DNA of 64,000 nt from an uncultured Clostridia bacterium (GTDB taxonomy: Bacteria; Bacillota; Clostridia; Christensenellales; Borkfalkiaceae), in contig CAUHGY010000001.1 of assembly GCA_959605945.1 (NCBI GenBank), positions 3,413 to 67,412 on the forward strand. Reading direction: 5' to 3'. The position numbers and the translations under genes were made by a program. Below, one piece after another: positions 26,482 through 61,410 of this stretch. The notes under the pieces were generated by a model. That model made no database searches, had not been told where the DNA came from, and saw only the letters and a program-made list of their open reading frames with translations. Every line of letters starts with the position of its first letter. Within the stretch, counting starts at the first letter, position 1.

Positions 26482-26494
26482 ATGACAAAATAAA

Positions 26495-26747
26495 AACGAT
26501 GACGAAGAGTACCCGTTCTAAAAATTTTTCAGAGAGACGGCGGCGGGTGAAAGCCGTTAAAATGTTTGTTCGGGTTTGTAGCTTCCGAGTTGGGAGAAAG
26601 AAAGCTTTCTGCGAGTAGAATTTCCCCGTGCTGACGCGTTAAGTCATAAGGATTGATAGATCCTGAGAGGCAGATTTATCTGCAATTTGAGTGGTACCGC
26701 GGATATTTATTATCCGTCTCAAAGTTATTTTTGAGACGGATTTTTTT
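26495..26747 (+). promoter_or_regulatory. T-box riboswitch leader 1 (transcription attenuation type), putative specifier GUA (Val)
   Basis: K-turn (AAC-GAU-GA...GA-GUU), S-turn AGUA, AG bulge AGAGA, distal loop GGCGGGUGAAA, stem III GCAGAU/AUCUGC, T-box sequence AAUUUGAGUGGUACCGCGG (26684-26702). Terminator CCGTCTCAAA/TTTGAGACGG plus T7 (26714-26747) is mutually exclusive with the antiterminator GAG-UGGUACC-GCGGAUA...UAUCCGU-CUC. Confidence 0.88.
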
Positions 26748-26766: not shown

Positions 26767-28500
26767 ATGCAAAATATTGCCCGCAACAAAGCAGAAAATC
26801 TCAGTTTTTCAAAAATTCTTACTGACAAAAAGAATATGCTCTGCGATAATTTTTATGACAATCAACATAATTGGGTTTACGATAAATTTATAGACGCCGA
26901 AGTCGATCAAAACGGAACTCCCGTATCGGTGACTTTTAAAAATGAAGATAAGTTTAATTTTGCATTTGACATAGTCGATGAACTTGCAGACCGTTATCCG
27001 GATAAACCGGCGCTTCTGCACGTTACCGAAGACGGCGTTGAAACCAGATTTTCATTCCGGGATATGAAGGAACTTTCAGCCCGAGCTGCGAATTATTTCA
27101 AAGCGATCGGGATAAAAAAAGGCGACAGAGTAATGTTGGTTCTCGGAAGGCGTTATCAGTTCTGGTACGCGATGTTGGGCCTTCATAAAATCGGGGCGAT
27201 AGCGCTTCCTGCAATGTGCCAGCTTTTAGAGCATGATTTCGAGTACAGATTTAATTCGGCGGGAGTGTGTGCCGTTATATGTACCGACGGCGGTGACGTC
27301 GCCCTTCACGCTGAACGCGCTGCCGAAAATTGTCCGTGCGTAAAATATAAGTTTATAGTAGGGGCCGAACGAGACGGCTGGCGCAGCTTTGACAGCGAAA
27401 TTTTTAAATATTCGCCTGTTTATGAAAGATCGGAAAATTCGCCTTGCGGGAAAGACATAATGCTGATGTTTTTCACTTCCGGTACAACCGGCTATCCTAA
27501 AATAGCTGCACACAATTACAAATATGCACTCGGGCATTTCCACACTGCCAAATACTGGCATTGCGTGCAGCGTGACGGTCTTCACTTCACTATTTCCGAC
27601 ACCGGTTGGGCAAAAGCCATGTGGGGGAAATTCTACGGTCAATGGATATGCGAATCTGCAATTTTTGTATATGATTTCGATAGATTCAATGCGGCAGATA
27701 TCCTTTCGTTGTTTGCAAAATATAAGATAACCACTTTTTGTGCGCCGCCGACGATGTTGAGAATGATGGTTAAAGAAAATCTCGGAAAATACGATTTATC
27801 ATCCGTAAAACATATGTCGACAGCGGGAGAAGCTCTGAACCCCGAAGTTTACCGCAAGTTTGAAAGTGCAACCGGACTGAAGATTATGGAAGGATTCGGT
27901 CAGACCGAAACGACGATGGTTATAGGCAATATGGCAGGGGCGCCGCACAAGATAGGATCTATGGGCAAACCGGCGCCGATTTATAAAGTAGAACTTTTGA
28001 ATTCCGACGGCAAAAAGGTTGCAGACGGAGAAGCCGGCGAAATAGTTATCAACGTCAAAAACGGTGCTCCGTGCGGATTGTTTTGCGGATATTATAACGA
28101 TAAGGAAAAAACAGACGAAGTATGGCATAACGGTTATTACCATACAGGCGACATGGCATGGAAAGACGAAAGCGGATTTTACTGGTATGTCGGCAGAGCG
28201 GATGACGTCATAAAATCGTCGGGCTACAGAATAGGTCCTTTTGAAATTGAGAGCGTGATAATGGAATTGCCCTACGTTCTTGAATGCGGAGTATCGCCTT
28301 ACCCCGATGAAGTGCGCGGACAGATAGTAAAGGCCAGTGTCGTTTTGACTGCAGGTACAGAGCCTACCGACCAATTGAAAAAAGAAATTCAAAACTATGT
28401 CAAGACGCACACGGCGCCTTATAAATATCCGAGAATAGTGGAGTTTAAAAAAGAACTGCCTAAAACGGTAAGTGGGAAAATACAGAGAAGCAAACTTTAA
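26767..28500 (+). CDS. AMP-forming acyl-CoA synthetase, medium-chain (ACSM-like) subfamily
   Basis: Adenylate-forming motifs FFTSGTTGYPK, EGFGQTET, YHTGD, GRADDVIKSSGYRIGPFEIE, PKTVSGKIQR. GGAGG RBS. Confidence 0.85.
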   Translation: MQNIARNKAENLSFSKILTDKKNMLCDNFYDNQHNWVYDKFIDAEVDQNGTPVSVTFKNEDKFNFAFDIVDELADRYPDKPALLHVTEDGVETRFSFRDMKELSARAANYFKAIGIKKGDRVMLVLGRRYQFWYAMLGLHKIGAIALPAMCQLLEHDFEYRFNSAGVCAVICTDGGDVALHAERAAENCPCVKYKFIVGAERDGWRSFDSEIFKYSPVYERSENSPCGKDIMLMFFTSGTTGYPKIAAHNYKYALGHFHTAKYWHCVQRDGLHFTISDTGWAKAMWGKFYGQWICESAIFVYDFDRFNAADILSLFAKYKITTFCAPPTMLRMMVKENLGKYDLSSVKHMSTAGEALNPEVYRKFESATGLKIMEGFGQTETTMVIGNMAGAPHKIGSMGKPAPIYKVELLNSDGKKVADGEAGEIVINVKNGAPCGLFCGYYNDKEKTDEVWHNGYYHTGDMAWKDESGFYWYVGRADDVIKSSGYRIGPFEIESVIMELPYVLECGVSPYPDEVRGQIVKASVVLTAGTEPTDQLKKEIQNYVKTHTAPYKYPRIVEFKKELPKTVSGKIQRSKL

Positions 28501-28515
28501 TCAGGAGTGGTTTTT

Positions 28516-29316
28516 ATGGAAATAATAGACGCTCACGCACATATTTATCCGCAGAAAATAGCCGCGAAAGCGACTGAGGCTATAGGTGATTTTTACGATA
28601 TAACCATGGAGATGCCTGCAGGCACACCAGAAAAACTTATAGAAATAGGTGCTTCCGCGGGAATAAGCGGTTATCTGGTTCATTCAGTGGCGACCAAAGC
28701 AGGGCAAGTTAAATCCATAAACGATTTTATCATCGAAGAGACCCGTCTTCACAGAGAATTTATCGGATTCATGACTTTGCATCAGGACATGTCGGAAGAA
28801 GAAATATTTTCCGAAATAGAACGTTGCAAAGCTGCGGGGCTGAGAGGCATAAAATTGCATCCGGATTTTCAGAAATTTTATATTGACGGTAAAGATGCGG
28901 AAAAATTTTACCGCGCGCTTTCAATGATTAACGGCGTTTTTCCCGTTCTTTTTCATACCGGAGACAACAGATATGAATTTTCGCGCCCGGAAAGGTTGGC
29001 CAAAGTAGCTGCAAAATATAAAAAACTATATTTTATTGGTGCTCATTTCGGCGGTTACCGATGCTGGGACGATGCGTGGGTATATAAGGGGCTTGATAAC
29101 GTTTATTTTGATACAAGCTCATCTCTTCCGTTTATTTCATCGGAAAGAGCGCGTGAAATTATAGACATGCTTGGTTATGAAAAGTTTTTTTTCGGCGACG
29201 ATTTTCCCATGTGGGATGCAAAAAAAGAACTTGAAAGATTTTTTAAACTAAAACTGTCGGAGAAACAGAATTCTGCCATATTATCCGGAAATTTAAAAAA
29301 TTTACTGGAATTATAA
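28516..29316 (+). CDS. Metal-dependent TIM-barrel amidohydrolase (PF04909-like)
   Basis: N-terminal IIDAHAHIYP (HxH), GIKLHPD, FHTG, GAHFGG, YFDTS, FGDDFPMW. The ATG at 28516 has a GGAG 8 nt upstream. Confidence 0.7.
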   Translation: MEIIDAHAHIYPQKIAAKATEAIGDFYDITMEMPAGTPEKLIEIGASAGISGYLVHSVATKAGQVKSINDFIIEETRLHREFIGFMTLHQDMSEEEIFSEIERCKAAGLRGIKLHPDFQKFYIDGKDAEKFYRALSMINGVFPVLFHTGDNRYEFSRPERLAKVAAKYKKLYFIGAHFGGYRCWDDAWVYKGLDNVYFDTSSSLPFISSERAREIIDMLGYEKFFFGDDFPMWDAKKELERFFKLKLSEKQNSAILSGNLKNLLEL

Positions 29317-29334: not shown

Positions 29335-29363
29335 TTGACAAATCAAAGTAAAAGCATTAGAAT
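29335..29363 (+). promoter_or_regulatory. Sigma-70-type promoter of T-box operon 2
   Basis: TTGACA (29335-29340), 17-nt spacer, TAGAAT (29358-29363). Confidence 0.65.
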
Positions 29364-29384
29364 ATATAAAAATTATCATATAAA

Positions 29385-29638
29385 TGCAGTGATGGAAAAT
29401 ACTCGTCAAATTGCGTTTCAGAGAGCCGGCGGCAGGTGAAAGCCGGTATCGCGTTGATGCGTTCTCGTTCCGGAGCAGGAGTTGCGAAAACCGAGATTAC
29501 GTTTTATCAGGTAATATTTGTCGATAGTTACTCCCGGCGGCGCCGTTATACGTTTAAATGAGAGATTGCATATCGCAATAATATGGGTGGTACCGCGGTC
29601 ATTCCGTCCCTGACTTATAAAAAGTCAGGGATTTTTTT
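29385..29638 (+). promoter_or_regulatory. T-box riboswitch leader 2 (transcription attenuation type), putative specifier CUC (Leu)
   Basis: K-turn (UGC-AGU-GA...GA-GCA), AG bulge AGAGA, distal loop GGCAGGUGAAA, stem III AUUGC/GCAAU, T-box AUAUGGGUGGUACCGCGG (29581-29598). Terminator CCCTGACTT/AAGTCAGGG plus T7 (29608-29638) competes with the antiterminator GGG-UGGUACC-GCGG...CCGU-CCC. Confidence 0.88.
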
Positions 29639-29670: not shown

Positions 29671-31080
29671 ATGAAGGAAATAATTGTTAGCGACGTAACG
29701 CTTAAAGAATTAAACCGATCGGACGTTTTGTCGCTCGGGTTTAAAGAGAAGCTGGAGATAGCAAAAAAAATAAGCGAACTTTCCGTAGACGTTATCGAAC
29801 TGTTTCCCGCAGCAGGAAATAAAGCGGATGAAATATTGGTCAAGACCATTTCCGCTTGCATAAATAACAGAATAATTGCCTGTACGGCAGGTTATACCGA
29901 AAACGATCTTAAAAACAATTACGCGCTTATAAGCGGAGCGAAAAATAAACGCATCATAATAAGCATTCCGGTTTCGCCCGTGCAGATAGAATATGTTTTA
30001 AACAAAAAGCCTCAAGCAGTATTGGATTTGCTTGCAGAGCTCACCGAAAAAGCTGCGGAGCTTTGTTCGGATGTGGAAGTCTCGCTCGAAGACGCTACGC
30101 GCGCCGAAACGTCTTTTTTGCAACAGGCACTAAAAACGGCAATCTGCCGCGGAGCTAAAACCGTTACTCTGACAGATGCTGCGGGGCAGATGCTTCCGTC
30201 TGAATTCAAGGAATTCTTAGAGGATATGTATAATGCGGTGCCCGAACTGAAAGACGTGAAACTTGCGGTAATGATTTCCGATGCATATTCTATGGCAAAC
30301 GCCGGCCTTTTTAATGCGGTTGCCGCAGGCGCTGCCGAAGTAAAGGTCTCGGCCGTTGCAAGCCTCGGCGTTGCCAAAACCGAAAATTTCATAAGATCTA
30401 TGGAAACTATCGGCGTTAAAAAAGGCTATGCATGCAACCTGAACAAGACCGGTGCAATGCGAATAATAAAGCAAATAGCTCAAATCGCTGCGGAAAAAAG
30501 CGCTTATACGGCATTCGGCAGCGTAGTTGGCGAAAAAAATGAAGATATAGATAAAAACGTTTCCGAAGTAGAACTCAGCGAAATAATACAGCGGTTAGGT
30601 TATGATCTTGCGCCTGAAGATATTAAAAAGGTTTATTCTGAATTTTCTCTTCTTGCCGAGAAAAAGCAAGTCGGCATAAAGGAACTTGATGCCATAATCG
30701 CGAATACCGCGTTGCAAGTTCCCGCAACTTATTCCATCGAAAATTTTTCTGTCAGCATAAACAATACAGGCGCGGCCATGGCAGGAGTGACTCTTTTGTC
30801 GGACGGTAAACTCACGAGCGGCCTGTCTTACGGCAACGGCTCCATCGACGCGGCTTTTCTGGCTATAGAAAACATAACGGGAAGGCATTTCGATCTTGAC
30901 GATTTTGAAGTTACGGCAGTTACCGAAGGGAAGGAAGCCATGGGGCAGACGGTGATTAAACTCCGCAGCGGCGGAAAACTTTATTCCGGCCGCGGTATAT
31001 CAACCGATATAGTCGGTGCAAGCATAAAAGCTTATGTAAACGCACTCAACAAAATAGTATATGAGGAACAGCACAGATGA
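29671..31080 (+). CDS. 2-isopropylmalate synthase (LeuA) homolog with a degenerate catalytic barrel and a conserved LeuA-dimer/regulatory domain
   Basis: Aligns by eye with LeuA along its full length (EDATR retained). RDGEQ is replaced by KELNR (res 12-16), HxH by M-I-S (res 201-203), and HESGIH is absent. The C-terminal GNGSIDAAFLAIENITG...VTEGKEAMGQ...GRGISTDIVGASIKAYVNALNK is highly LeuA-like. Confidence 0.75.
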   Translation: MKEIIVSDVTLKELNRSDVLSLGFKEKLEIAKKISELSVDVIELFPAAGNKADEILVKTISACINNRIIACTAGYTENDLKNNYALISGAKNKRIIISIPVSPVQIEYVLNKKPQAVLDLLAELTEKAAELCSDVEVSLEDATRAETSFLQQALKTAICRGAKTVTLTDAAGQMLPSEFKEFLEDMYNAVPELKDVKLAVMISDAYSMANAGLFNAVAAGAAEVKVSAVASLGVAKTENFIRSMETIGVKKGYACNLNKTGAMRIIKQIAQIAAEKSAYTAFGSVVGEKNEDIDKNVSEVELSEIIQRLGYDLAPEDIKKVYSEFSLLAEKKQVGIKELDAIIANTALQVPATYSIENFSVSINNTGAAMAGVTLLSDGKLTSGLSYGNGSIDAAFLAIENITGRHFDLDDFEVTAVTEGKEAMGQTVIKLRSGGKLYSGRGISTDIVGASIKAYVNALNKIVYEEQHR

Positions 31081-33590
31081 AACTTTCTTTTTCGACTAAC
31101 GGATGGAATCTGGGATTTTCCCAGCTCGTCAGATTATGCGGCGAAAATAAGATTTCGGGGCTTGAAATACACGATGTGGATTCGCCTTGTTTTCAAAAAG
31201 AGAATCCTTTCGGAAAAAATAATCTGCCAAAAACAAAAAGAATTCTTTTTGAAAGCGGAATAAGCATTTCTTGCCTTGATTCGGTCGGTAACTTCGCTAA
31301 TTTTTCTGCCGAAGAAGAGAATATTGCGGAAATCGTAAAACTTATAGAACTATCAAAAGAACTCGGCTGTAAATACGTCAGACTTCACGCTTACAATATA
31401 GAGGGTTCAGAGATTTCTGCAGAAGATTGTAATTCCCGTTTGATGATAATTTTGCCGCGGCTTATAGAGTCTGCAAAGAAAAACGATGTGACGCTGCTTT
31501 TTGAATCAATGGGCATTTATGCGGATACCGCAAAACTTGCAGGATTATTGAATTCTTTTGCCAGCGATAACTTTGCGGCGCTGTGGGATATTCACCATAC
31601 TAATTTTTATGCAAAAGAAAGTCCGGAATCGTCGGTTAAAAATCTTGGAAAGCACATAAAACATCTGCACATTAAAGACAGCTCTCTGATTGGCGGAAAA
31701 CTTTCCTTTTGCCTGTTGGGTGAAGGCGATTTGCCCATAAAACAGGTATTTAACAGCCTGCGCTCTATAAATTACGAAGGGTTCGTATCGCTTGAACTTA
31801 TGCAGGAATGGTTGGAAACCATCGGCGAACCGGACATCGTTTTACCGCAGTTTGCAAGCTATATGGGAACATTCGAGAGCGTGCCTTCCTGGCAGAATAA
31901 GCTCTATGACAATAAGAGAAAGACGGGTAAATTTATATGGGAGAAAGAAACGCTTATCGAACGCACTTTTTCTCAGGTTCTTGATAAAGTAACGGAAGAA
32001 TTTCCCGACCAGATAGCTTTTAAATACACTACGCTCGATTATACCCGAACATATTCGGAATTCCGCGACGAAGTAGATATTGTTGCGAGAGCGCTGATGG
32101 CTATAGGCGTTCGTAAAGGCGACCACGTTGCGGTGTGGGCAACAAATGTTCCTGAATGGTATCTTACGTTTTGGGCGACAACCAAAATCGGCGCCGTGCT
32201 TGTTACCGTGAACACCGCTTATAAAGTACATGAGGCGGAATATCTGTTGAAACAGTCGGATACTCACACGCTGGTTATGATTAAGGGCTGGAGAGATTCC
32301 GATTACGCCGGTATAATAAACGAACTCTGTCCCGAACTGAAAGATTTGAAAAAAGGCGAATCCCTGCACGCAAAGAGACTTCCGTTTCTTCGCAATGTCG
32401 TGACGGTGGGATTCAGGCAGAAAGGGTGTCTTGAATTTTCCGAAATGATGGAGTTAGCGAAAAACGTTCCGCAGGAAAAAATGCAGATGGTTGCAAATAC
32501 CGTAGGGGTGAACGACGTCTGTAATATGCAGTATACTTCCGGTACCACGGGATTTCCTAAAGGCGTCATGCTGACGCATTATAATATTGTTAATAACGGG
32601 AAATGCATAGGCGACAGAATGGATCTTTCGACAGCCGACAGAATGATGATACAGGTTCCTATGTTCCACTGTTTCGGAATGGTACTTGCCATGACGGCGT
32701 CAATCACGCACGGAGTTTCCATATATCCGTTGCCGTATTTTTCGCCGAAGCCTGCGCTTGCATGCATAAATCAGGAGCAGATAACGTGTTTCCACGGCGT
32801 TCCGACTATGTTTATAGCTATGCTCGCCCATGACGATTTCCCGAAAACAGACTTTTCCCATATGCGTACGGGCATAATGGCGGGAAGTCCCTGTCCGGTA
32901 GCCGTAATGCAGGATGTAATAGATAAAATGCATATGACGGAGATAACTATAGTCTACGGGCAGACCGAAGCATCGCCCGGGTGCACGATGTCGAGCACGG
33001 AAGACAGTATAGAAGTCCGTGTTGAAACGGTCGGCAGACCCCTTCCGAGCATAGAATGTAAAATCGTTGATCCGGAAACCAACAGAGAAGTGCCTGATAA
33101 CACGGTCGGAGAGTTTGTTGCACGCGGTTATAACCTTATGAAAGGCTATTATAAAATGCCTAACGAGACGGCAAAAGCAATAGACTCGGAAGGGTGGCTG
33201 CACACAGGCGACCTTGCTCTCAGAATGCCGGACGGCAATTTCCGAATAACCGGCAGACTTAAGGATATGATAATCCGTGGCGGGGAGAATCTTTATCCGA
33301 AAGAAATAGAAGATTTTCTCTATACTCACCCAAAGGTGTCGGACGTGCAGGTTGTCGGCGTGCCTGACGAAAAATACGGTGAAGAGGCGTATGCCTATGT
33401 AATTCTGAAAGAGGGCGAAACCCTTACGGAAAATGAATTGCGCGAATATTGCGTAGCAAGCATTGCAAAACATAAAGTACCGAGATATTTTGATTTTGTA
33501 AGCAGTTTTCCGATGAACGTCGCAGGGAAAATATTGAAATATAAAATGCGGGAAGACGCTGCGGAAAAAATAAAGAATTTAAAAAAATAA
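31077..33590 (+). CDS. Fusion: xylose-isomerase-like TIM barrel (sugar phosphate isomerase/epimerase family) plus AMP-dependent acyl-CoA ligase (FadD-like)
   Basis: Residues 1 to ~270 show the PF01261-type pattern (LFES, WDIHH, HLHIKD, GEGDLP, GFVSLEL). Residues ~290-837 have YTSGTTGFPKGVMLTH, YGQTE, GWLHTGDLA, GRLKDMIIRGGENLYPKEIE, GKILK. Single ORF with an ATGA overlap with the upstream gene. Confidence 0.8.
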   Translation: MKLSFSTNGWNLGFSQLVRLCGENKISGLEIHDVDSPCFQKENPFGKNNLPKTKRILFESGISISCLDSVGNFANFSAEEENIAEIVKLIELSKELGCKYVRLHAYNIEGSEISAEDCNSRLMIILPRLIESAKKNDVTLLFESMGIYADTAKLAGLLNSFASDNFAALWDIHHTNFYAKESPESSVKNLGKHIKHLHIKDSSLIGGKLSFCLLGEGDLPIKQVFNSLRSINYEGFVSLELMQEWLETIGEPDIVLPQFASYMGTFESVPSWQNKLYDNKRKTGKFIWEKETLIERTFSQVLDKVTEEFPDQIAFKYTTLDYTRTYSEFRDEVDIVARALMAIGVRKGDHVAVWATNVPEWYLTFWATTKIGAVLVTVNTAYKVHEAEYLLKQSDTHTLVMIKGWRDSDYAGIINELCPELKDLKKGESLHAKRLPFLRNVVTVGFRQKGCLEFSEMMELAKNVPQEKMQMVANTVGVNDVCNMQYTSGTTGFPKGVMLTHYNIVNNGKCIGDRMDLSTADRMMIQVPMFHCFGMVLAMTASITHGVSIYPLPYFSPKPALACINQEQITCFHGVPTMFIAMLAHDDFPKTDFSHMRTGIMAGSPCPVAVMQDVIDKMHMTEITIVYGQTEASPGCTMSSTEDSIEVRVETVGRPLPSIECKIVDPETNREVPDNTVGEFVARGYNLMKGYYKMPNETAKAIDSEGWLHTGDLALRMPDGNFRITGRLKDMIIRGGENLYPKEIEDFLYTHPKVSDVQVVGVPDEKYGEEAYAYVILKEGETLTENELREYCVASIAKHKVPRYFDFVSSFPMNVAGKILKYKMREDAAEKIKNLKK

Positions 33591-33603: not shown

Positions 33604-34668
33604 ATGGAGATAAAAATACAGAAAGCCGAAAAACTGAAAGAAAAACCCGATTTTTCGAATCTGGGTTTCGGTAAATATTTTACCGATCATATGTTTGTTA
33701 TGGATTATTCGGACAAGGAAGGCTGGCACGACGCGAGAATAATTCCTTTCGGGTATATTCCGATTCATCCTGCAAGTACCGTACTGCACTACGGTGCGGA
33801 AATATTTGAGGGTATGAAGGCATATAAGACCGAAGACGGTTATCAGATGTTCAGACCTTATGAAAATGCAAAGCGTTTCAACAATTCCGCAGAGAGAATG
33901 TGTTTGCCGCAGATTGACGAGGAATTATTCGTTAAATCGATAACCGAGCTTATAAACATCGATTACAGCTGGATTCCCGACTCCGAAGGCGCATCGCTTT
34001 ATATTCGCCCCTTCATGTTCGGAAATGACGAAAGCCTTGGAGTTCACGCTGTTCACAATGCGACTTATGTTGTCATTCTTTCGCCGGTCGGAAGCTATTA
34101 TAAAGAAGGTCTGAATCCCGTGAAAATCACTATAGAAGATGAAGACGTGAGAGCAGTCCGCGGCGGTACAGGCTATGCAAAGTGCGGCGGCAATTATGCG
34201 GCCAGCATGCGTGCGGGGCAGCGCGCCGAGAAAAAAGGTTTTACTCAGGTGCTTTGGCTTGACGGCGTGGAAAGAAAATATATCGAAGAAGTCGGCGCCA
34301 TGAACGTTATGTTCAAAATAGACGGGGAAATCGTTACTCCCAAACTTACGGGATCGGTTCTTCCCGGCATAACGAGAAAATCTTGCATTGAAATGCTCAG
34401 AAGCTGGGGTTATAATGTTAATGAAAGATTGTTGTCTGTCGACGAACTTATAGGCGCTGCCGAAAACGGAAAGCTTGAAGAAGCCTGGGGAACAGGCACG
34501 GCTGCAGTGGTTTCTCCCATAGGATTGCTGTCGTATAAAGGCAAAGATCACGTGGTGTCGCAAAATAAAATAGGCGCGCTTACGCAGAAACTTTATGATG
34601 AGCTTACGGGAATGCAGTGGGGTAAAAAACCCGATGCTTTCGGCTGGTGTTATAAGGTAAAAATTTGA
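33604..34668 (+). CDS. ilvE: Branched-chain amino acid aminotransferase (fold-type IV, long form)
   Basis: 354 aa. Typical IlvE blocks FGKYFTDHMF, LHYGAEIFEGMKAY, YIRPFMFG, GGTGYAKCGGNYA, EVGAMNVMF, VLPGITR, GTAAVVSPI. Confidence 0.9.
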   Translation: MEIKIQKAEKLKEKPDFSNLGFGKYFTDHMFVMDYSDKEGWHDARIIPFGYIPIHPASTVLHYGAEIFEGMKAYKTEDGYQMFRPYENAKRFNNSAERMCLPQIDEELFVKSITELINIDYSWIPDSEGASLYIRPFMFGNDESLGVHAVHNATYVVILSPVGSYYKEGLNPVKITIEDEDVRAVRGGTGYAKCGGNYAASMRAGQRAEKKGFTQVLWLDGVERKYIEEVGAMNVMFKIDGEIVTPKLTGSVLPGITRKSCIEMLRSWGYNVNERLLSVDELIGAAENGKLEEAWGTGTAAVVSPIGLLSYKGKDHVVSQNKIGALTQKLYDELTGMQWGKKPDAFGWCYKVKI

Positions 34669-35336
34669 TGAACGCAAAACGGATAACGCTGTTTGCCGGG
34701 CACTACGGCAGCGGCAAAACCAATGTGGCGGTAAACTTTGCGTGCAGCCTTGCGAAAGACGGTAAGAGAACGGTAATTTACGATCTCGATATAGTAAATC
34801 CGTATTTCAGGACGATAGACGCGAAAAAATTTCTCGACGAATGCGGCGTTGAACTTGTTGTATCGCCGTACGCCGAAACTAATGTGGATATACCGGCAAT
34901 GAATGCCGCGTCTTACCGTATGGTGGACGATCTTGAAAGTTATGCCGTCGTGGATATCGGGGGCGACGACCGCGGTGCGTATGCACTCGGCAGATTTTCC
35001 GAAAAGATAAAAGCCGAAAATAATTATGATATGCTGCTTGTAATCAACAGATTTCGCCCTGAAACACGTACTGTTGAAAACCTTGCGGAAATTAAAGACG
35101 AAATAGAAAGAGCAGCGAAAATAAAATTTACGGGTATTGTGGATAATTCCAATCTCGGAGCCGAAACAACGCTGGAAACGATTGAAGAAAACAGGGCTTT
35201 TGCCCTTGAATCGTCGGAAAAATTCATGTTACCTGTTGTGTTTACTTCGATAAACAGCGAGCTGTTAAAAAATCGAAAAAATATCAGAGAAGACATATTG
35301 CCCGTCAGTTTGATAAAGTACGGCGATTGGCAATAG
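34668..35336 (+). CDS. P-loop NTPase of unknown function (SIMIBI-like)
   Basis: Walker A GHYGSGKT near the N-terminus and a Walker-B-like VVDIGGDD. TGATG overlap with the ilvE stop. Sits immediately upstream of the OFOR genes. Confidence 0.55.
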   Translation: MNAKRITLFAGHYGSGKTNVAVNFACSLAKDGKRTVIYDLDIVNPYFRTIDAKKFLDECGVELVVSPYAETNVDIPAMNAASYRMVDDLESYAVVDIGGDDRGAYALGRFSEKIKAENNYDMLLVINRFRPETRTVENLAEIKDEIERAAKIKFTGIVDNSNLGAETTLETIEENRAFALESSEKFMLPVVFTSINSELLKNRKNIREDILPVSLIKYGDWQ

Positions 35337-35346
35337 AGGAGAAAAA

Positions 35347-35553
35347 ATGGCGAAAGTTACTTTTAACGTTGAACGCTGCAAGGGATGCGGACTGTGTGAA
35401 ATGGTTTGTCCGAAACATATTATTTCTCTTGCACAGGAAAAGATTAACACGAAGGGCTATCATCCTGCTGAAGTTACAGATGCAAATAAGTGCATAGGGT
35501 GCGCATTTTGCGCCACTATGTGTCCGGACAGCGTAATTACGGTGGAAAAATAG
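35347..35553 (+). CDS. 2-oxoacid:ferredoxin oxidoreductase delta subunit (2x[4Fe-4S] ferredoxin)
   Basis: CKGCGLCEMVCP and CIGCAFCATMCP. 68 aa. Positioned before the alpha subunit. Confidence 0.85.
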   Translation: MAKVTFNVERCKGCGLCEMVCPKHIISLAQEKINTKGYHPAEVTDANKCIGCAFCATMCPDSVITVEK

Positions 35554-35562
35554 AGGTGAAAT

Positions 35563-36633
35563 ATGTCAGATAAAGTTTTAATGAAAGGAAACGAGGCGCT
35601 GGCAGAAGCTGCCATTATGGCGGGATGCAGATATTATTTCGGCTATCCTATAACTCCGCAGACCGAAGTCGCCGCATATATGTCAAGACGCATGCCTAAA
35701 ATCGGCGGAACGTTCTTGCAGGCGGAATCGGAAATTGCCGCTATCAACATGGTTATAGGCGTATCGTCATGCGGAAAACGCGTCATGACGTCGAGTTCAA
35801 GTCCAGGAATATCTTTAAAAAGCGAAGGCATTTCTTATCTTGCCGGCTGTGAACTTCCCGCACTGATCGTAAATGTGCAGAGAGGAGGTCCGGGGCTCGG
35901 TGGAATTCAACCTTCTCAGTCAGACTATTTCCAGGCAACAAAAGGCGGCGGGCACGGAGACTATAAACTTATAGTTCTTGCACCGGCCTCCATCCAGGAA
36001 ATGGTCGACCTTACATTCAAAGGTTTTGACCTTGCGGATAAATACAGAATGCAGACCATGATTCTTGCGGACGGAACTATGGGGCAGATGATGGAGCCGG
36101 TAAGCTTAAATCTCGGCGAAGTGAAAGAATACGATAAAAGTTGGGCTACGACGGGAACGGCTAACCACGACGGCAGAAACGTAGTGAATTCACTCTCGCT
36201 TTCGCCTGCGCAGCTTGAAGAATGGAATATTTCGAGATACGAAAGATATAAAATAGTCGAACGCGACGAGGTTATGTTTGAAGAATTCATGATGGATGAT
36301 GCCGATTATTGCATAGTTGCATTCGGAATAGCCGCAAGAATTTCCAAAAACGCTATTCTCGAAGCGAGAAAACAAGGTCTTAAAGCGGGAATGATCCGTC
36401 CTATTACTTTATGGCCGTTCCCCAAAAACGTTCTCAAAAAAGCGGCAGAAAAAGTCAAGGCGTTTTTATCGGTCGAACTCAATATGGGGCAGATGATCGA
36501 TGATGTGAAACTTGCCGTTGAATGTTCAAAACCCGTTTATCTTTGCAACCGCACCGGCGGAATGCTTGTTTCCCCGCAGGAAGTGCTTGATAAACTTAAA
36601 GAAATTGACAAAGGAGAAGCAAAACAATGGTAG
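35563..36633 (+). CDS. vorB: 2-oxoacid:ferredoxin oxidoreductase alpha subunit, VorB-like
   Basis: LMKGNEALAEAAIMAGCRYYFGYPITPQTE, QAESEIAAINM, SSSSPGISL, RGGPGLGGIQPSQSDYFQATKGGGHGDY. Substrate assignment rests on context only. Confidence 0.8.
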   Translation: MSDKVLMKGNEALAEAAIMAGCRYYFGYPITPQTEVAAYMSRRMPKIGGTFLQAESEIAAINMVIGVSSCGKRVMTSSSSPGISLKSEGISYLAGCELPALIVNVQRGGPGLGGIQPSQSDYFQATKGGGHGDYKLIVLAPASIQEMVDLTFKGFDLADKYRMQTMILADGTMGQMMEPVSLNLGEVKEYDKSWATTGTANHDGRNVVNSLSLSPAQLEEWNISRYERYKIVERDEVMFEEFMMDDADYCIVAFGIAARISKNAILEARKQGLKAGMIRPITLWPFPKNVLKKAAEKVKAFLSVELNMGQMIDDVKLAVECSKPVYLCNRTGGMLVSPQEVLDKLKEIDKGEAKQW

Positions 36634-37373
36634 TTTTCGGAAAAACAAAGGGACTTACCGATAATCCGTTGCATTATTGTCCGGGTTGTACGCATGGTAT
36701 AATTCACAGACTTGTGGCGGAAGTTCTCGAAGAACTCGGCGTGCTCGGAAAAACGGTCGGAGTTGCGTCGGTAGGATGTTCGGTCTTTTCCTATAATTAT
36801 TTTAATTGCGATATGATACAGGCGGCTCACGGAAGAGCGCCGGCCGTTGCGACAGGGGCCAAAAGAGCAAATCCCGACAACATAGTTTTTACCTATCAGG
36901 GTGACGGCGATCTCGCTGCGATAGGTACGGCTGAAACCGTTCATTCGGCTGCCCGCAACGAAAATATAACGGTGATTTTTGTCAACAACGCCATTTACGG
37001 CATGACCGGCGGACAGATGGCGCCTACCACGCTTCCGAATCAGGTCACTCAGACTTCGCCTTACGGCAGAGATGTCACAGTGGTAGGTTACCCTGTAAAG
37101 GTATGTGAGATGCTTTCTCAGGTCGACGGTGCATCTTATCTCGAACGCGTGGCAGTAAACAATATCGCTAATATCAGGAAAGCTAAAAAAGCTATTTATC
37201 ACGCTTTTAAAAATCAGATGGAAGGTAAAGGATTTTCTCTTATAGAAGTTCTTTCAACATGTCCCACCAACTGGGGGCTTTCTCCTAAGGAAGCAATAAA
37301 ATGGCTTGACGACAATCTTGAAACTTATTATCCTCTCGGAGTATATAAGGACAAATACAAGGAGGAAAAGTAA
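36627..37373 (+). CDS. vorA: 2-oxoacid:ferredoxin oxidoreductase beta subunit (TPP-binding)
   Basis: YCPGCTHG, GDGD...NNAIYGMTGGQ (TPP/Mg motif). Overlaps the alpha-subunit gene. Confidence 0.85.
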   Translation: MVVFGKTKGLTDNPLHYCPGCTHGIIHRLVAEVLEELGVLGKTVGVASVGCSVFSYNYFNCDMIQAAHGRAPAVATGAKRANPDNIVFTYQGDGDLAAIGTAETVHSAARNENITVIFVNNAIYGMTGGQMAPTTLPNQVTQTSPYGRDVTVVGYPVKVCEMLSQVDGASYLERVAVNNIANIRKAKKAIYHAFKNQMEGKGFSLIEVLSTCPTNWGLSPKEAIKWLDDNLETYYPLGVYKDKYKEEK

Positions 37374-37913
37374 ATGGCAAAAACCACCAAGATTCTGATT
37401 GCCGGTTTCGGCGGACAGGGGATTCTGTTTGCGGGAAAAGCCTTGGCGTATACCGGGCTTAAAGCCGACATGGAAGTCAGCTGGCTTCCTTCTTACGGCC
37501 CCGAAATGCGCGGGGGAACGGCAAATTGCAGCGTGACGCTTTCAGATACTGCTATCGGATCTCCTATAGTCGATAAACCCGATATTCTGATAGCTATGAA
37601 TCTGCCTTCGCTTGAAAAATATTTTTACGAAACGGAAAAAGGCGGATACATTATATTCGACAGTTCACTGATTATCAAGCAGGATACCAGAGACGATGTT
37701 ATCACCGTTGGTATTCCTGCGACAAAGATGGCAAGTGATAACGGGCTTGATGGACTGGCGAATATGATAATGTTGGGTAAGGTAATCAAAGAAACCGGCA
37801 TCCTTACATTAGAACAGGTAAAAAACAGTCTATCGCAAATGGTTCCGGCTAAAAAGGCGGACCTTTTACAAAAAAATATCAAGGCGATAGAATTGGGTTA
37901 TAATTTTCAATAG
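37374..37913 (+). CDS. 2-oxoacid:ferredoxin oxidoreductase gamma subunit
   Basis: [29 protein letters not shown]. The start abuts the beta-subunit stop. Confidence 0.85.
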
Positions 37914-37922
37914 GGGGTTATT

Positions 37923-38474
37923 ATGAAAGAGCAGTTGAAGGCAATGGGCCAAAGGCTTACGGAGTTAAGGGAAATAAACGGCGTTTCTGTCAAAGAAATT
38001 GCCGAAAGACTCAAAATGACCGAAGAAGAATATACCGCATATGAAAACGGCGACAGAGATTTTTCTTTCAGTTTCATGTTTAATGTTGCCACGATTTTCG
38101 GTGTTGACGTATTCAATCTGCTTTCAGGTAACTCTCCTAAATTGAGCGATTGCGCTGTAGTAAGGAAAGGGCAGGAATTTTTTATTAAAAAGGAAGGCTC
38201 ATATAACTACAAACATCTCGCTTATACGTTTAAGAATAAAAAAGCGGAACCGTTTTTCGTCGTGAGTATGCCGGGCGAGGAAGATACTGACCTTCACAGC
38301 CATGAAGGACAGGAATTTAATTTCGTTCTTTCCGGCAGCATGCTTTTCAAGATCGGAGATATGTCGTACGAATTGAATAAAGGCGACAGCGTTTATTTCA
38401 ATTCGTCGCTCAAACACGGCATAAAAGTGCTCGGCGACAAACCCGTTAAATTTCTTGCAGTCGTAATGAAATAA
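37923..38474 (+). CDS. XRE-family HTH plus cupin-domain transcriptional regulator
   Basis: N-terminal HTH (LTELREINGVSVKEIAERLKMTEEEYTAYENG). C-terminal cupin (HSHEGQEFNFVLSG...GDSVYFNSSLKHG). Confidence 0.8.
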   Translation: MKEQLKAMGQRLTELREINGVSVKEIAERLKMTEEEYTAYENGDRDFSFSFMFNVATIFGVDVFNLLSGNSPKLSDCAVVRKGQEFFIKKEGSYNYKHLAYTFKNKKAEPFFVVSMPGEEDTDLHSHEGQEFNFVLSGSMLFKIGDMSYELNKGDSVYFNSSLKHGIKVLGDKPVKFLAVVMK

Positions 38475-38502: not shown

Positions 38503-40197
38503 ATGGTTATTTACGAAAAATATACGGGAAGAAACAGGGATTCATTTAAAGATTTAAAAGATTTAAGAGAAAACTTCAAAATAACGTACGGCGAAGATTT
38601 TAACTTTGCCTATGACGTGATGGATGTGTTGGCAAAAGAAAAACCGGACAAACTTGCCATGCTTTGGCTTTCCGATAAGAAAGAAGAAAAGCGTTTTACT
38701 TTTGCCGATATGAAATATTGGTCGGATAAAACCGCATGCTATCTCAAGAGCATGGGCATAAAGAAAGGGGACAAGGTCCTGCTTGTACTGAAGCGCAGCT
38801 ATTTATTTTGGTTTTGTATGCTTGCCATGCATAAAATAGGTGCGATACCCATTCAAGCGACCAATATGCTTGTGGGAAAAGACTTTACTTACCGATGTAA
38901 TAAAGCCGGTATACGTGCGGTCATCATTACCGGTGACGGCGATGTCAGCGAACATTTTGACACGGTTGAAGCTCAATGCACAACCGTAGAGATGAAATTT
39001 GTCACAAAACATAAGGATGCCGGAAAAGGCTGGATTGATTTTGAAAGCGGGCTTATGGCTGCATCGTCTGATTGGAAAAAACCTGTCGGAAAAGATGCTG
39101 TCAAAGCAAAAGACATTATGTTTATGGCGTTTTCGTCAGGCACAACGGGTTATCCCAAAATGATAATGCACGATTTTACTTATCCGTTAGGGCATATCGT
39201 GACGGGATTGTTCTGGCATCGCGTGGAAGACGGAGGACTTCACTTCACTATATCCGACACGGGGTGGCTGAAATCGCTTTGGGGTAAATTTTATGGACAA
39301 TGGTTCGGCGAATCGGCAATACTCGTGTACGATTTCAATAAATTTGACGGGGCCGATATATTGGATGTGCTGTCAAAATATAAAGTCACCACTTTCTGTG
39401 TTCCGCCTACCATGTATAGATTTATGCTGCAAAACGACGTCAAATCTTACGACCTGTCATCGCTTAAACATTGTTGTTCTGCGGGAGAGGCCCTCAATGC
39501 GGATATTTTTAACAAGTGGAAAGATGCTACCGGGTTGGAAATATACGAGGGATTCGGTCAGACCGAAACGACGCTTTGTCTCGGCACTCTTTACGGTTTT
39601 TCAAAGCCGATTTCGGGTTTTATAGGCAAACCCGTTGCGGGATACGATTTAATGGTGGCGGGAAAAGACGGTAAAGAATGTCTTCCCGGCGAAGCCGGAG
39701 AAATCTGCATAAAAGCAAGTCCGGAAAACAAACCGTGCGGTTTGATGTGCGGTTATTATAACGACGAAGAGTCAACTGCGTACAGTTGGCGCGGCGGGTG
39801 TTTCCATACGGGCGACACCGCATATGTAGACGAATACGGCAACTATAAATATATCGGTCGTAACGATGACGTCATAAAGTCGTCAGGATACCGCATCGGA
39901 CCTTTCGAAGTGGAAAGCGTTCTCATGGAACATCCCGCGGTTCTCGAAGTGGCCGTTACCGGAGTGCCTGACGAAAAAAGAGGTTTCAGCGTAAAGGCAA
40001 CGATAGTTCTTAAAAAAGGTTATGTTCCGAGCAGCGAGCTTGTTGTTGAGCTTCAAAATTACGTCAAAACAAACACGGCGCCTTATAAATATCCGCGAGT
40101 GGTGGAATTTGTAGAATCACTTCCAAAAACTATCAGCGGCAAAATAAGACGTACTGAAATACGTGAGAATGACATGTTGAAATACGGAAAAAAATAA
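38503..40197 (+). CDS. AMP-forming acyl-CoA synthetase, ACSM-like (paralog of 26767-28500)
   Basis: FSSGTTGYPK, EGFGQTET, FHTGD, GRNDDVIKSSGYRIGPFEVE, PKTISGKIRR. Roughly half the residues are identical to the first ligase by eye. Confidence 0.85.
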   Translation: MVIYEKYTGRNRDSFKDLKDLRENFKITYGEDFNFAYDVMDVLAKEKPDKLAMLWLSDKKEEKRFTFADMKYWSDKTACYLKSMGIKKGDKVLLVLKRSYLFWFCMLAMHKIGAIPIQATNMLVGKDFTYRCNKAGIRAVIITGDGDVSEHFDTVEAQCTTVEMKFVTKHKDAGKGWIDFESGLMAASSDWKKPVGKDAVKAKDIMFMAFSSGTTGYPKMIMHDFTYPLGHIVTGLFWHRVEDGGLHFTISDTGWLKSLWGKFYGQWFGESAILVYDFNKFDGADILDVLSKYKVTTFCVPPTMYRFMLQNDVKSYDLSSLKHCCSAGEALNADIFNKWKDATGLEIYEGFGQTETTLCLGTLYGFSKPISGFIGKPVAGYDLMVAGKDGKECLPGEAGEICIKASPENKPCGLMCGYYNDEESTAYSWRGGCFHTGDTAYVDEYGNYKYIGRNDDVIKSSGYRIGPFEVESVLMEHPAVLEVAVTGVPDEKRGFSVKATIVLKKGYVPSSELVVELQNYVKTNTAPYKYPRVVEFVESLPKTISGKIRRTEIRENDMLKYGKK

Positions 40198-40203
40198 ATA
40201 TCG

Positions 40204-40230
40204 GCCGCCATATATGGCGGCTGTATTTTT
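40204..40230 (+). terminator. Rho-independent terminator ending T-box operon 2
   Basis: Palindrome GCCGCCATATATGGCGGC followed by TGTATTTTT. Confidence 0.75.
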
Positions 40231-40390: not shown

Positions 40391-41485
40391 ATGGAAATTA
40401 AAAACAAATTACTCACCGGAGAAGAAAAAATTTCTTTTCGTTTAAGAAGCCTTTATGCGGGTTTCGGCTATTCATGTTTTAAGATGAGTAAATTCGAAGA
40501 ATACGATCTGTACAGTCGGAACAAAGATTTTCTTGTTTCCGACAGGGTGCTTACGTTTACAGATACTGACGGAAAACTTATGGCCTTAAAACCCGACGTT
40601 ACGTTATCGATTGTAAAAAATTACGACGGAACGGCCGGCGATGTACAGCGTGTTTACTATAATGAAAACGTTTACAGAGTATCGGAGAACACAAAAAAGT
40701 ATAAAGAGATTATGCAGGCGGGTCTCGAATGTATCGGCGCCCTGACAGATTATAATCTTTTCGAGGTTCTGTTTCTTGCCGCAGAAAGTCTTAATGTTAT
40801 ATCCGAGAGAAGTGTTCTTATATTGTCGCATCTCGGCGTTATATCCGCAATTTTGGAAAAAGTCGGATGCGCTGAAGATGAGCTTCTTTTAAATATTTCG
40901 GAAAAAAATCTCCACGGAGTGGATGAAATATGCAAACGATGCGCTATCGACGGAAGTATTTATGAGATTCTGAAGCTTGTAACCGCATCTTCCTGGGAAG
41001 CGGATGATATATTGCAGAAATTAAGAAAACTTTCTTCCGATAAACTTCTTTTAAAATCTCTTGACGAAATAGAACGTGCGGCACGGTTTTTAAAATCCAA
41101 TTCAAAAGTGCCGGTACGCGTGGATTTTTCCGTAGTAAATGATATGAATTACTATAACGGTCTTGTTTTCAGAGGATATGTCAAAGAAATTCCCGCGCGT
41201 GTTCTTAGCGGCGGACAATACGATAAACTTATGGATAAAATGTCCAAAAATGCCAAAGCTGCAGGTTTTGCCGTTTATCTCGACCTTGCGGAAAGATTAA
41301 AGACCGAAGATTATCCCGATGTTGACGCCGTTCTGCTTTATGACGAGAACATCGACGCGGAAGACATAATTAAAGAAGTAAAAAAATACAGAGAAGCAGG
41401 CAAAAGCGTTGCGGTTTGCGCTGACGTACCGAATAAAATAACCTTTGGGGAAATTATTCGTATAAGCGAGAAAAAATTATCATGA
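40391..41485 (+). CDS. hisZ: ATP phosphoribosyltransferase regulatory subunit
   Basis: HisRS-like catalytic-core paralog without an anticodon-binding domain. Directly precedes a short-form hisG. Confidence 0.85.
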   Translation: MEIKNKLLTGEEKISFRLRSLYAGFGYSCFKMSKFEEYDLYSRNKDFLVSDRVLTFTDTDGKLMALKPDVTLSIVKNYDGTAGDVQRVYYNENVYRVSENTKKYKEIMQAGLECIGALTDYNLFEVLFLAAESLNVISERSVLILSHLGVISAILEKVGCAEDELLLNISEKNLHGVDEICKRCAIDGSIYEILKLVTASSWEADDILQKLRKLSSDKLLLKSLDEIERAARFLKSNSKVPVRVDFSVVNDMNYYNGLVFRGYVKEIPARVLSGGQYDKLMDKMSKNAKAAGFAVYLDLAERLKTEDYPDVDAVLLYDENIDAEDIIKEVKKYREAGKSVAVCADVPNKITFGEIIRISEKKLS

Positions 41486-42138
41486 AAGAGATATTGAACG
41501 TTGCTCTTCCCAAGGGGAGACTTGGAGAAAAAGTATATAAACTTTTTGAAAAATCAGGATATTCCTGTCCGGAAATATTAGATTCATCCACAAGAAAGCT
41601 TATATTTGAAAATCCGGAAAAAGGTATAAGATATTTTTGGGTTAAACCTTCCGATGTAAGCATATATGTTGAACGCGGAGCGGCCGATATAGGAATTGCG
41701 GGTAAAGATATTCTGATGGAATATAAACCGCGGGTTTTTGAATTGCTCGATCTGAAACTCGGTAAATGCCGCCTTGCGGTTGCCGCAAAAAAAGGTTTTA
41801 GGGACAAACGTGAATATACCCTTCGTGTGGCTACAAAATTTCCAAATATAACTACGGAATACTACGCCGAAAAATGCCGCGATGTCGACATAATAAAACT
41901 CAACGGATCTATAGAACTTGCACCTATTCTTAATTTGTCGGATGTTATATTGGATATAGTCGAAACAGGCACTACTCTTTTGGAAAATAATCTTGAACCT
42001 ATCGAGAAAGTAGCTGACGTTTCCGCAAGGCTTATCGCAAATACCGCGTCGTTTCAGTTTAAAAACGGAGAAATAACCGAAATACTTGACAATCTGAGAA
42101 AATATACGGAGGGAAGCGGCGTTGATAAAAATTTTTAA
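41482..42138 (+). CDS. hisG: ATP phosphoribosyltransferase, short form
   Basis: 218 aa. LALPKGRL-type N-terminus (VALPKGRLGE), DIVETGTTL. Confidence 0.92.
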   Translation: MKEILNVALPKGRLGEKVYKLFEKSGYSCPEILDSSTRKLIFENPEKGIRYFWVKPSDVSIYVERGAADIGIAGKDILMEYKPRVFELLDLKLGKCRLAVAAKKGFRDKREYTLRVATKFPNITTEYYAEKCRDVDIIKLNGSIELAPILNLSDVILDIVETGTTLLENNLEPIEKVADVSARLIANTASFQFKNGEITEILDNLRKYTEGSGVDKNF

Positions 42139-59303: not shown

Positions 59304-59481
59304 AATTTAATAGATAAAATTGAAATTATATTTTATCTTAAAATTATATAATTTTACATATAAAAATTCCAATTTAATCTGTTTTACATATATTGCGCGA
59401 TAAAATTTTAAAAGCTATTGACTAACTTGTTTTTTTATTATATTATTTCTTATAAATAATTCTTATTTGCAAGGAGCAATT

Positions 59482-61377: not shown

Positions 61378-61410
61378 CGATATAAATTATAAAAAGAGAA
61401 AATTATAAAA

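Follow-up and report, generated by a model that had tools for sequence, protein, structure and literature searches.

What remains of a biosynthetic enzyme once its active site is gone, and why would a bacterium keep the remnant under the control of the pathway's end product? These questions are raised by an open reading frame (ORF) in a 64,000-nucleotide stretch of DNA from an uncultured Clostridia bacterium of the Borkfalkiaceae (contig CAUHGY010000001.1, positions 3,413 to 67,412 of the forward strand); this whole stretch is called the window below. The ORF, at 29671-31080, encodes a homologue of 2-isopropylmalate synthase (IPMS; LeuA), which we refer to as the LeuA-like protein. The gene that follows encodes a xylose-isomerase-like TIM domain fused to an AMP-forming acyl-CoA ligase (TIM::ligase). 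A first-pass annotation, made from the letters of the sequence, had described the LeuA-like gene as the first behind a leucine T-box and its product as a LeuA with replaced catalytic residues and a conserved leucine-binding domain. It had suggested either a pseudoenzyme that senses leucine for the downstream ligase or pathway, or a barrel repurposed for different chemistry. We find that the protein is almost certainly a non-catalytic derivative of LeuA that is under selection, judging from its sequence and from those of its relatives.

The LeuA-like protein has lost the LeuA active site

Pfam assigns residues 4-254 to an HMGL-like domain (PF00682; E 8.4e-34) and residues 337-462 to a LeuA_dimer domain (PF08502; E 5.4e-31), the latter spanning positions 5-130 of the 131 in its profile. 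These E values put homology to LeuA far beyond chance, and the order of the two domains bears out the colinearity with 2-isopropylmalate synthase that had been proposed. The top NCBIfam models are also those of bacterial 2-isopropylmalate synthase, at scores well under their thresholds: 273.7 bits with NF002086 against a cut-off of 532, and 244.7 bits with the LeuA equivalog TIGR00973 against a cut-off of 598.7. At about half of the curated cut-off, the protein falls outside the LeuA equivalog. The AlphaFold2 (AF2) model, with a predicted local distance difference test score (pLDDT) of 85.7, consists of a barrel, a disordered stretch (residues 276-289), a helical subdomain and a double beta-beta-beta-alpha domain. 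The block-mean pLDDT is >84 over most of the barrel and 70 for residues 11-20. The best Foldseek matches of the model are methylthioalkylmalate (MAM) synthase, Mycobacterium tuberculosis LeuA and Neisseria meningitidis IPMS (3rmj); a sequence search with the regulatory domain alone against the PDB gave no match.

To locate the active-site positions, we aligned the protein with the IPMS enzymes of N. meningitidis and Listeria monocytogenes, both of which have solved structures, and with Escherichia coli LeuA. The alignments agree on each of the replacements listed in the first-pass annotation, at the residues given there: RDGEQ reads KELNR (residues 12-16), the metal ligands H202 and H204 are M201 and S203 in a motif that reads M-I-S (201-203), and GIGERAGN is lost, with SLGVAKTEN at residue 231. 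PDTVG reads TDAAG. The three positions of the metal triad (Asp in RDGxQ, both His in HxH) are therefore occupied by E13, M201 and S203. At the 2-oxoacid and catalytic positions, the Arg of RDG is Lys, the Thr of PDT is Ala and the His of HxF is Ile, while the Glu of EDA is variable across the family. A surviving Asp/His/His triad and Arg had been named as the finding that would speak against the loss of catalysis; in the alignment all are replaced. The HESGIH block is absent, as had been claimed: only 19 residues are left opposite residues 285-335 of E. coli LeuA, which bear HSSGIH, so the subdomain I/HxxGIH segment is deleted. The C-terminal LeuA_dimer domain retains GNGSIDAAF (at 388), VTEGKEAMGQ (at 417) and GRGISTDIVGASIKAYVNALNK (at 440), again in agreement with the earlier description.

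Active-site loss is family-wide and the conservation pattern is inverted

Through a word-indexed search we obtained 120 full-length relatives of the LeuA-like protein, at 45-100% identity. In their sources these are named 'hypothetical', 'alpha-isopropylmalate synthase regulatory domain-containing protein' or, wrongly, '2-isopropylmalate synthase'. In an exhaustive search of 1.84 billion representatives, the family comprised ~115 clusters at 50% identity, with lengths of 450-480 aa and scores from 511 down to ~220 bits; true LeuAs (~500-516 aa) start at ~209 bits in the same search. A scan with one genome per species found the protein in at least 589 GTDB species-level genomes. Among the matches listed, nearly every carrier is an uncultured member of the Oscillospirales from gut or rumen (Acutalibacteraceae, Oscillospiraceae, Faecousia and Ruminococcaceae).

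We then compared the active sites of ~108 family representatives with those of E. coli LeuA and seven true LeuAs. His was found at both metal positions in none of the ~108 representatives, and the Asp position is rarely Asp. The fourteen former active-site positions, which read RDEQEHFSENPTHH in true LeuAs, are hypervariable in the family and accept almost any residue. Loss of the Asp/His/His triad, of the Arg/Thr/Glu residues and of subdomain I is common to all ~108-115 representatives; what is left of subdomain I amounts to 14-32 residues in nearly all members (9 in one), compared with 50 in E. coli LeuA.

Compared with true LeuA, the conservation pattern is reversed, with the regulatory domain best kept and the barrel least. 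Within the family, pairs of regulatory domains are on average 56% identical and pairs of barrels 33%, as opposed to 38% and 44%, respectively, in true LeuAs. In the same way, 40% of the regulatory-domain columns are at least 90% conserved in the family, against 17% of the barrel columns. Invariance is greatest in two motifs, G388-N-G-x-x-D393 and G440-x-G-x-S-T-D446, which are followed by helices 391-403 and 447-468, respectively. Family-wide loss of the active site and inverted conservation together give strong support to a pseudoenzyme whose selected function lies in the sensor half, and the pseudoenzyme status put forward in the first-pass annotation thus holds for the family as a whole.

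Two further full-length LeuA-like proteins, P0329 (503 aa) and P0335 (511 aa), keep subdomain I and have active sites that are degenerate in part (CEEREKFALCTSHQ and CDEQEHYSESPTRY at the fourteen sites); these may have decayed from LeuA independently or may represent an intermediate stage of such decay. Candidates for a shuffled sensor module, short matches in which LeuA_dimer would be joined to MFS, DctM, MBOAT or 7TMR N-termini (P0318, P0321, P0324, P0346 and P0347), were rejected on the grounds of abrupt junctions, N-termini that are fragmentary or look like wrong-frame translations, and short contigs. P0331 corresponds to the latter half of a gene with a frameshift.

The LeuA-like gene is coupled to TIM::ligase and to leucine T-boxes

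The 4-nt overlap (ATGA) between the LeuA-like gene and the TIM::ligase gene (31077..33590), reported earlier, is present in the sequence. In all 76 GTDB loci in which both genes could be placed, TIM::ligase lies directly 3' of the LeuA-like gene; at the junction, 35 loci have 4 nt of overlap, 6 have 1 nt, and 27 have 1-12 nt between the two genes. The ribosome-binding site, GAGGAG, lies inside the conserved C-terminal YEE(Q) codons, as read in related loci rather than in the window. TIM::ligase is a single ORF in 72 of 73 related loci. The core motifs of the ligase (TSGTTGFPKG, YGQTE, TGD and GKILK) can be read in the window sequence.

As a reciprocal test, metagenome contigs were searched from the TIM domain, which gave 80 loci. 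Wherever the downstream sequence is long enough, the TIM domain is joined to the ligase. Of the 80 loci, 36 have the LeuA-like gene directly upstream, whereas ~34 others with sufficient upstream sequence lack it, and a LeuA-like gene without TIM::ligase was never found in the sampled loci. A partner that occurs only with TIM::ligase, where TIM::ligase often occurs without it, shows the pattern of an accessory subunit, and this argues against an indispensable catalytic role. In a split variant (L083 and L084), a 555-aa ligase (53% identical) is followed by a stand-alone 270-aa TIM protein, and there is no LeuA-like gene.

The position of the LeuA-like gene immediately behind a Leu T-box, as first described, is supported by an RF00230 match above the gathering score and by a CUC specifier (Table 1). 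Specifiers were placed by alignment to the Rfam model and by comparison with the leaders of related loci. A T-box core motif lies at most 420 nt upstream of the LeuA-like gene in 61 of 79 loci. All parsed specifiers in related loci are Leu codons (CUC in 24, CUG in 15), and the leaders that the pattern did not parse show CTC or CTG at the corresponding position. Where the LeuA-like gene is missing, a T-box directly precedes TIM::ligase in 16 of the 35 metagenome loci examined, with CUC or CUG in 8 of 8 parsed specifiers. T-box specifiers agree with gene function wherever this has been tested (PMC2494555). The TIM and ligase domains together would form a functional catalytic unit that, to judge by these leaders, belongs to the leucine regulon in its own right.

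The gene cluster and a proposed route from isovalerate to leucine

Table 1. Features of the LeuA-like gene, its T-box leaders and the surrounding cluster (window coordinates)
Feature	Coordinates	Strand	Basis or details
Val T-box leader, specifier GUA at 26578-26580	26490..26724	+	Rfam, 116 bits
MbcS-like acyl-CoA synthetase under Val T-box	26767-28500	+	profile search
Amidohydro_2 protein under Val T-box	28507-29316	+	profile search
Sigma-70-like promoter (TTGACA-17-TAGAAT) before Leu T-box	29335..29363	+	11/12 consensus matches; consensus match only
Leu T-box leader, specifier CUC at 29464-29466	29380..29614	+	RF00230, 99 bits vs gathering score 93
Intrinsic terminator of Leu T-box leader	29606..29632	+	11-bp stem, then T run
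LeuA-like ORF	29671..31080	+	469 aa, ATG start, TGA stop
LeuA-like residues 1-255: HMGL-like (DRE-TIM) barrel without catalytic residues	29671..30435	+	Pfam, alignments, AF2, Foldseek
LeuA-like residues 256-336: remnant linker (subdomain I deleted, 276-289 disordered) and helical subdomain II	30436..30678	+	alignments, AF2
LeuA-like residues 337-469 and stop: LeuA_dimer regulatory domain	30679..31080	+	Pfam, conservation
TIM::ligase residues 1-285: xylose-isomerase-like TIM domain	31077..31931	+	profile search, AF2 pLDDT 93.8, Foldseek
TIM::ligase residues 290-837: AMP-forming acyl-CoA ligase domain, proposed isovalerate-CoA ligase	31944..33590	+	AMP-binding E 7.8e-92; NF009233 701 bits
Branched-chain amino acid aminotransferase (ilvE, type II BCAT)	33604..34668	+	NF009897 474 bits, cut-off 307
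CbiA/MinD-like P-loop NTPase	34665..35336	+	profile search; conserved beside oxidoreductase genes
VOR-type 2-oxoacid:ferredoxin oxidoreductase, four subunits	35347..37913	+	delta 35347-35553, alpha 35563-36633, beta 36627-37373, gamma 37374-37913
XRE-helix-turn-helix (HTH)/cupin transcription regulator	37923..38474	+	profile search
Second MbcS-like short branched-chain acyl-CoA synthetase	38503..40197	+	best NF047394 MbcS, 415 bits, below cut-off
First strong terminator downstream of cluster	40202..40223	+	9-bp stem, 7 G-C pairs

An acyl-CoA ligase, a VOR-type oxidoreductase (VOR) and a branched-chain amino acid aminotransferase (BCAT) are encoded together in the window (Table 1). This is the gene set for reductive carboxylation to branched-chain amino acids (BCAAs), and it is conserved across loci. 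VOR alpha passes the VorB model NF005507 (542 bits against a cut-off of 399), and VOR delta, at 68 residues, carries two CxxCxxCxxxCP motifs for 2x[4Fe-4S]. Among related loci of at least 18 kb (n = 38), VOR alpha is present in 29, the P-loop NTPase in 28, the XRE/cupin regulator in 26 and at least one MbcS-like synthetase in 26. Rumen bacteria are known to make leucine by carboxylating isovalerate (PMC7356843), and the cluster, from its gene content, probably makes leucine from isovalerate. TIM::ligase would convert isovalerate, ATP and CoA to isovaleryl-CoA; VOR would reductively carboxylate isovaleryl-CoA to 4-methyl-2-oxopentanoate (ketoisocaproate, KIC); and BCAT would transaminate this to leucine. 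Because the ligases are AMP-forming and the T-boxes are induced by starvation, the direction is expected to be anabolic, from acid to acyl-CoA, 2-oxoacid and amino acid; the opposite, catabolic direction (BCAA fermentation) was rejected on the same two grounds.

The cluster has three AMP-forming ligases, TIM::ligase and the two MbcS-like synthetases. Staphylococcus aureus MbcS activates 2-methylbutyrate and isobutyrate and is poor with isovalerate (PMC10026030). Since the third ligase is of a different family and is Leu-controlled, TIM::ligase is a reasonable candidate for the isovalerate enzyme. The Val T-box, with the MbcS-like synthetase and the Amidohydro_2 protein behind it, suggests a parallel arm from isobutyrate to valine. 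Each of the two T-box leaders scores at or above the Rfam gathering threshold and has a promoter-like site and its own terminator. The Amidohydro_2 gene travels with the module and in other loci often stands directly after TIM::ligase. Many clusters (loci L003, L005, L009, L020, L043 and others) have two tandem pairs of XRE/cupin and MbcS-like genes besides the LeuA-like and TIM::ligase pair, and so three differently regulated ligases each, the number to be expected for three branched-chain acids. In most loci, the counterpart of the P-loop NTPase gene (34665-35336) is directly upstream of VOR delta-alpha-beta-gamma; its product may act in the maturation of the oxidoreductase or in the insertion of its clusters.

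A proposed leucine-sensing subunit of the ligase and its alternatives

Given a dead enzyme with a selected sensor half, what does it sense and what does it act on? We put at about an even chance the proposal that the LeuA-like protein is a Leu-sensing regulatory subunit of TIM::ligase; from the sequence data we infer Leu binding, the complex and the direction of the effect. The proposal draws on the invariant adjacency and coupling of the two genes, on the Leu-specific T-boxes and on the dispensability of the LeuA-like gene for TIM::ligase. The dead LeuA would dimerize via its regulatory domains and bind Leu in the conserved pocket at the interface between them. It would form a complex with TIM::ligase, probably barrel to TIM domain, and Leu binding would lower ligase activity, and with it the activation of isovalerate, when leucine is plentiful. 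The cell would in this way add rapid end-product feedback on a committed, ATP-consuming step to the slower control by the T-box. In M. tuberculosis LeuA, Leu occupies a dimer-interface pocket in which its carboxylate is flanked by the N-termini of two helices (PMC11057210), and a PF08502 domain remains able to sense its amino acid after removal from the enzyme (PMC13381585). The pairwise distances of the barrel and of the TIM domain correlate (r 0.81-0.94; partial r 0.69 given the ligase domain) and do so more closely than those of each domain with its covalently linked neighbour or with control proteins, which lends weak support to a contact between the two.

Several observations weigh against this proposal. 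The barrel-ligase domain correlation is also 0.81-0.94, and the distance correlations may reflect the co-inheritance of one operon module. A natural fusion of the LeuA-like protein with the ligase was not found among the 150 best representatives. The isovalerate substrate of TIM::ligase is deduced from context only. By sequence, profile and fold, the TIM domain has only generic sugar epimerase/isomerase relatives (13-22% identity); the window protein has the E-D-H-E metal tetrad, but 24 of 69 relatives carry Lys in place of E143, and the domain may be either a docking domain or an enzyme. Lastly, the barrel keeps the second-shell residues D8, E43, E136, D141, R144 and D169, together with the family-specific K225, and may have a residual role in ligand binding.

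The LeuA-like protein could instead be a structural partner, a scaffold or chaperone-like protein that stabilizes TIM::ligase or docks it to VOR for channelling of isovaleryl-CoA, with the regulatory domain serving for dimerization alone. Invariant coupling and adjacency are in line with such a role, LeuA_dimer is also a dimerization domain in true LeuA (as its Pfam name says), and HMGL-like barrels are known in channelling complexes, with DmpG/DmpF-type matches in our fold search. Pure dimerization, however, would leave unexplained the invariant glycine-rich loops at the helix N-termini, which correspond to the effector site of M. tuberculosis LeuA (PMC11057210), and a structural role does not account for the tie of the module to Leu T-boxes. 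TIM::ligase, moreover, works without the LeuA-like protein in many lineages. We consider a structural role unlikely.

Nor do we think it likely that the protein senses another metabolite (4-methyl-2-oxopentanoate, isovalerate, isovaleryl-CoA or Ile/Val), so that the pathway would be tuned to precursor supply rather than to its end product. PF08502 specificity can differ, being for Ile in CimA (PMC13381585); there are conserved polar residues around the C-terminal mouth of the barrel, in addition to K225; and KIC binds M. tuberculosis LeuA (3hps, recovered in the fold search). Set against this, the C-terminal domain matches LeuA rather than CimA models in NCBIfam, all parsed T-boxes are Leu, and all known residues that hold the 2-oxoacid and the metal are lost and variable.

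The second suggestion of the first-pass annotation, a barrel repurposed for different chemistry, fares worse. Here the barrel, alone or with the TIM domain, would catalyse a new reaction toward Leu with a new set of residues. The barrel fold is kept and modelled with high confidence, the family-specific residues K51, K58, K113, T143 and K225 are at least 90% conserved, and the TIM domain and the Amidohydro_2 gene travel with the module. Yet the barrel is the fastest-evolving folded part of the protein, with the low identity (33%) and few conserved columns (17%) given above; the former active-site positions accept almost any residue, no new conserved constellation has taken the place of the lost one, and subdomain I, which completes the active site, is deleted. 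In addition, TIM::ligase stands under the same Leu T-box control where there is no LeuA-like protein, so the pathway needs no extra catalytic step from it. We regard a repurposed enzyme as quite improbable. That the gene is a functionless LeuA remnant heading for loss agrees with the missing catalytic residues but is already refuted by how widespread and well conserved the family is: a frame of ~460-470 aa is intact in at least 589 species-level genomes and ~115 clusters, the regulatory domain is under strong purifying constraint, and translational coupling is conserved.

The favoured proposal of a Leu-sensing subunit can be extended to a more general picture, to which we assign somewhat less than an even chance. 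In hundreds of gut and rumen Oscillospirales species, the LeuA enzyme would have been recycled as a dead Leu receptor on an ANL-family ligase with a TIM docking domain, and feedback would have moved from de novo synthesis to isovalerate salvage.

Other genes in the window

About 200 nt downstream of the cluster terminator (40202-40223) is a classical precedent for a pseudoenzyme subunit, a HisZ-like/hisG gene pair (40391-42138). In this region (40391-43399), the HisZ-like gene (364 aa; TIGR00443 182 bits, below cut-off) overlaps a short hisG (41482-42138), which is followed by hisD.

The gene at 13763-15154 had been offered as a genuine family member for comparison. Its motifs DTTFRDGQQS (residue 60) and HGHND (residue 264) are intact as described; it is nevertheless not a genuine LeuA, since it lacks LeuA_dimer and is nearest to nifV models. 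The 463-aa product is an intact DRE-TIM condensing enzyme with HMGL-like and HCS_D2 domains and a 55-residue N-terminal extension. It scores below every curated cut-off (best, nifV homocitrate synthase), and the gene adjoins one for a class I/II aminotransferase. The product may be Re-citrate-synthase-like. Two large ORFs (636 and 850 aa) at 59467-63963 have no NCBIfam match at E <= 1e-10.

Significance

Conversion of isovalerate to leucine by fibre-degrading anaerobes of the rumen and gut has been known from labelling since the 1960s. If the proposals made here are true, the cluster would supply the genes and the control logic for this long-known route, and would amount to the first gene-level definition of the isovalerate-to-leucine step, complete with a T-box and pseudoenzyme control circuit. 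The LeuA-like protein and TIM::ligase would be a new type of heteromeric allosteric ligase. They would also be a case of natural domain recycling, in which an allosteric module and an old catalytic scaffold are moved together between pathways, parallel to HisZ and of other ancestry. There would be relevance for ruminant nutrition, where branched-chain volatile fatty acid (VFA) supplements are used, and for models of amino-acid cross-feeding in the gut, and a stand-alone natural Leu-binding protein could be a scaffold for biosensors. Whichever reading applies, the family should not be annotated as 2-isopropylmalate synthase; counting its members as LeuA leads to a false prediction of leucine prototrophy via the classical pathway.

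Comparison with known systems

The closest relative is bacterial LeuA of the short type (TIGR00973/PRK00915; E. coli LeuA, 3rmj), which has the same order of DRE-TIM barrel, helical subdomain II and regulatory domain made up of a pair of beta-beta-beta-alpha modules. E. coli LeuA and the LeuA-like protein are 27% identical in the barrel and 33% in the regulatory domain. They share the GNGxxDA and GxxTD(I/V) motifs and the Gly of ALGQ, which we take to be the feedback-resistance site G462 of E. coli LeuA. Unlike LeuA, the LeuA-like protein has no metal site and no Arg/Thr/Glu residues, has lost subdomain I with HxxGIH, reaches half of the curated cut-off and has an inverted conservation pattern; its genomic partner is an acyl-CoA ligase and not leuBCD.

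The pathway has a counterpart in the reductive carboxylation of branched-chain VFAs to BCAAs in the rumen and gut, where the gene content fits acid activation, ferredoxin-dependent carboxylation and transamination (PMC7356843). In the literature searched, this route is treated at the level of labelling and physiology, and no Leu-T-box-controlled TIM::ligase or LeuA-derived subunit is assigned to it; nor did we find a literature description of the LeuA-like family or of TIM::ligase. The parts are known in kind (T-box, pseudoenzyme subunit, reductive carboxylation), while the combination of a LeuA pseudoenzyme with an ANL ligase in a salvage pathway appears to be undescribed.

IlvN/IlvH, the ACT-domain subunit of acetohydroxyacid synthase, is likewise a separate polypeptide. 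It binds BCAAs and relays feedback to a catalytic partner, a function that for the LeuA-like protein is proposed by analogy, and IlvH has been used as a Val sensor (PMC13381585). It differs in that it has another fold, is not derived from a pathway enzyme and acts on another partner enzyme.

The nearest parallel in logic is HisZ, the subunit of short HisG. HisZ too is a catalysis-lost paralogue within the same amino-acid system, with its gene directly upstream of, and overlapping, the catalytic gene. It too is optional, there being long HisG without HisZ just as there is TIM::ligase without the LeuA-like gene. The function of HisZ is experimentally established, whereas that of the LeuA-like protein is one that we infer; the proposed likeness is end-product feedback on a committed step. 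The ancestries differ (class II aminoacyl-tRNA synthetase for HisZ, DRE-TIM barrel and LeuA_dimer here), and the enzyme regulated here would be an ANL-family ligase. The LeuA-like protein shows two features of a pseudoenzyme regulatory subunit, family-wide loss of catalysis under purifying selection and operonic coupling to a partner that also exists alone, and our best reading is that the LeuA-like protein is, by analogy, an optional allosteric subunit that follows the logic of HisZ.

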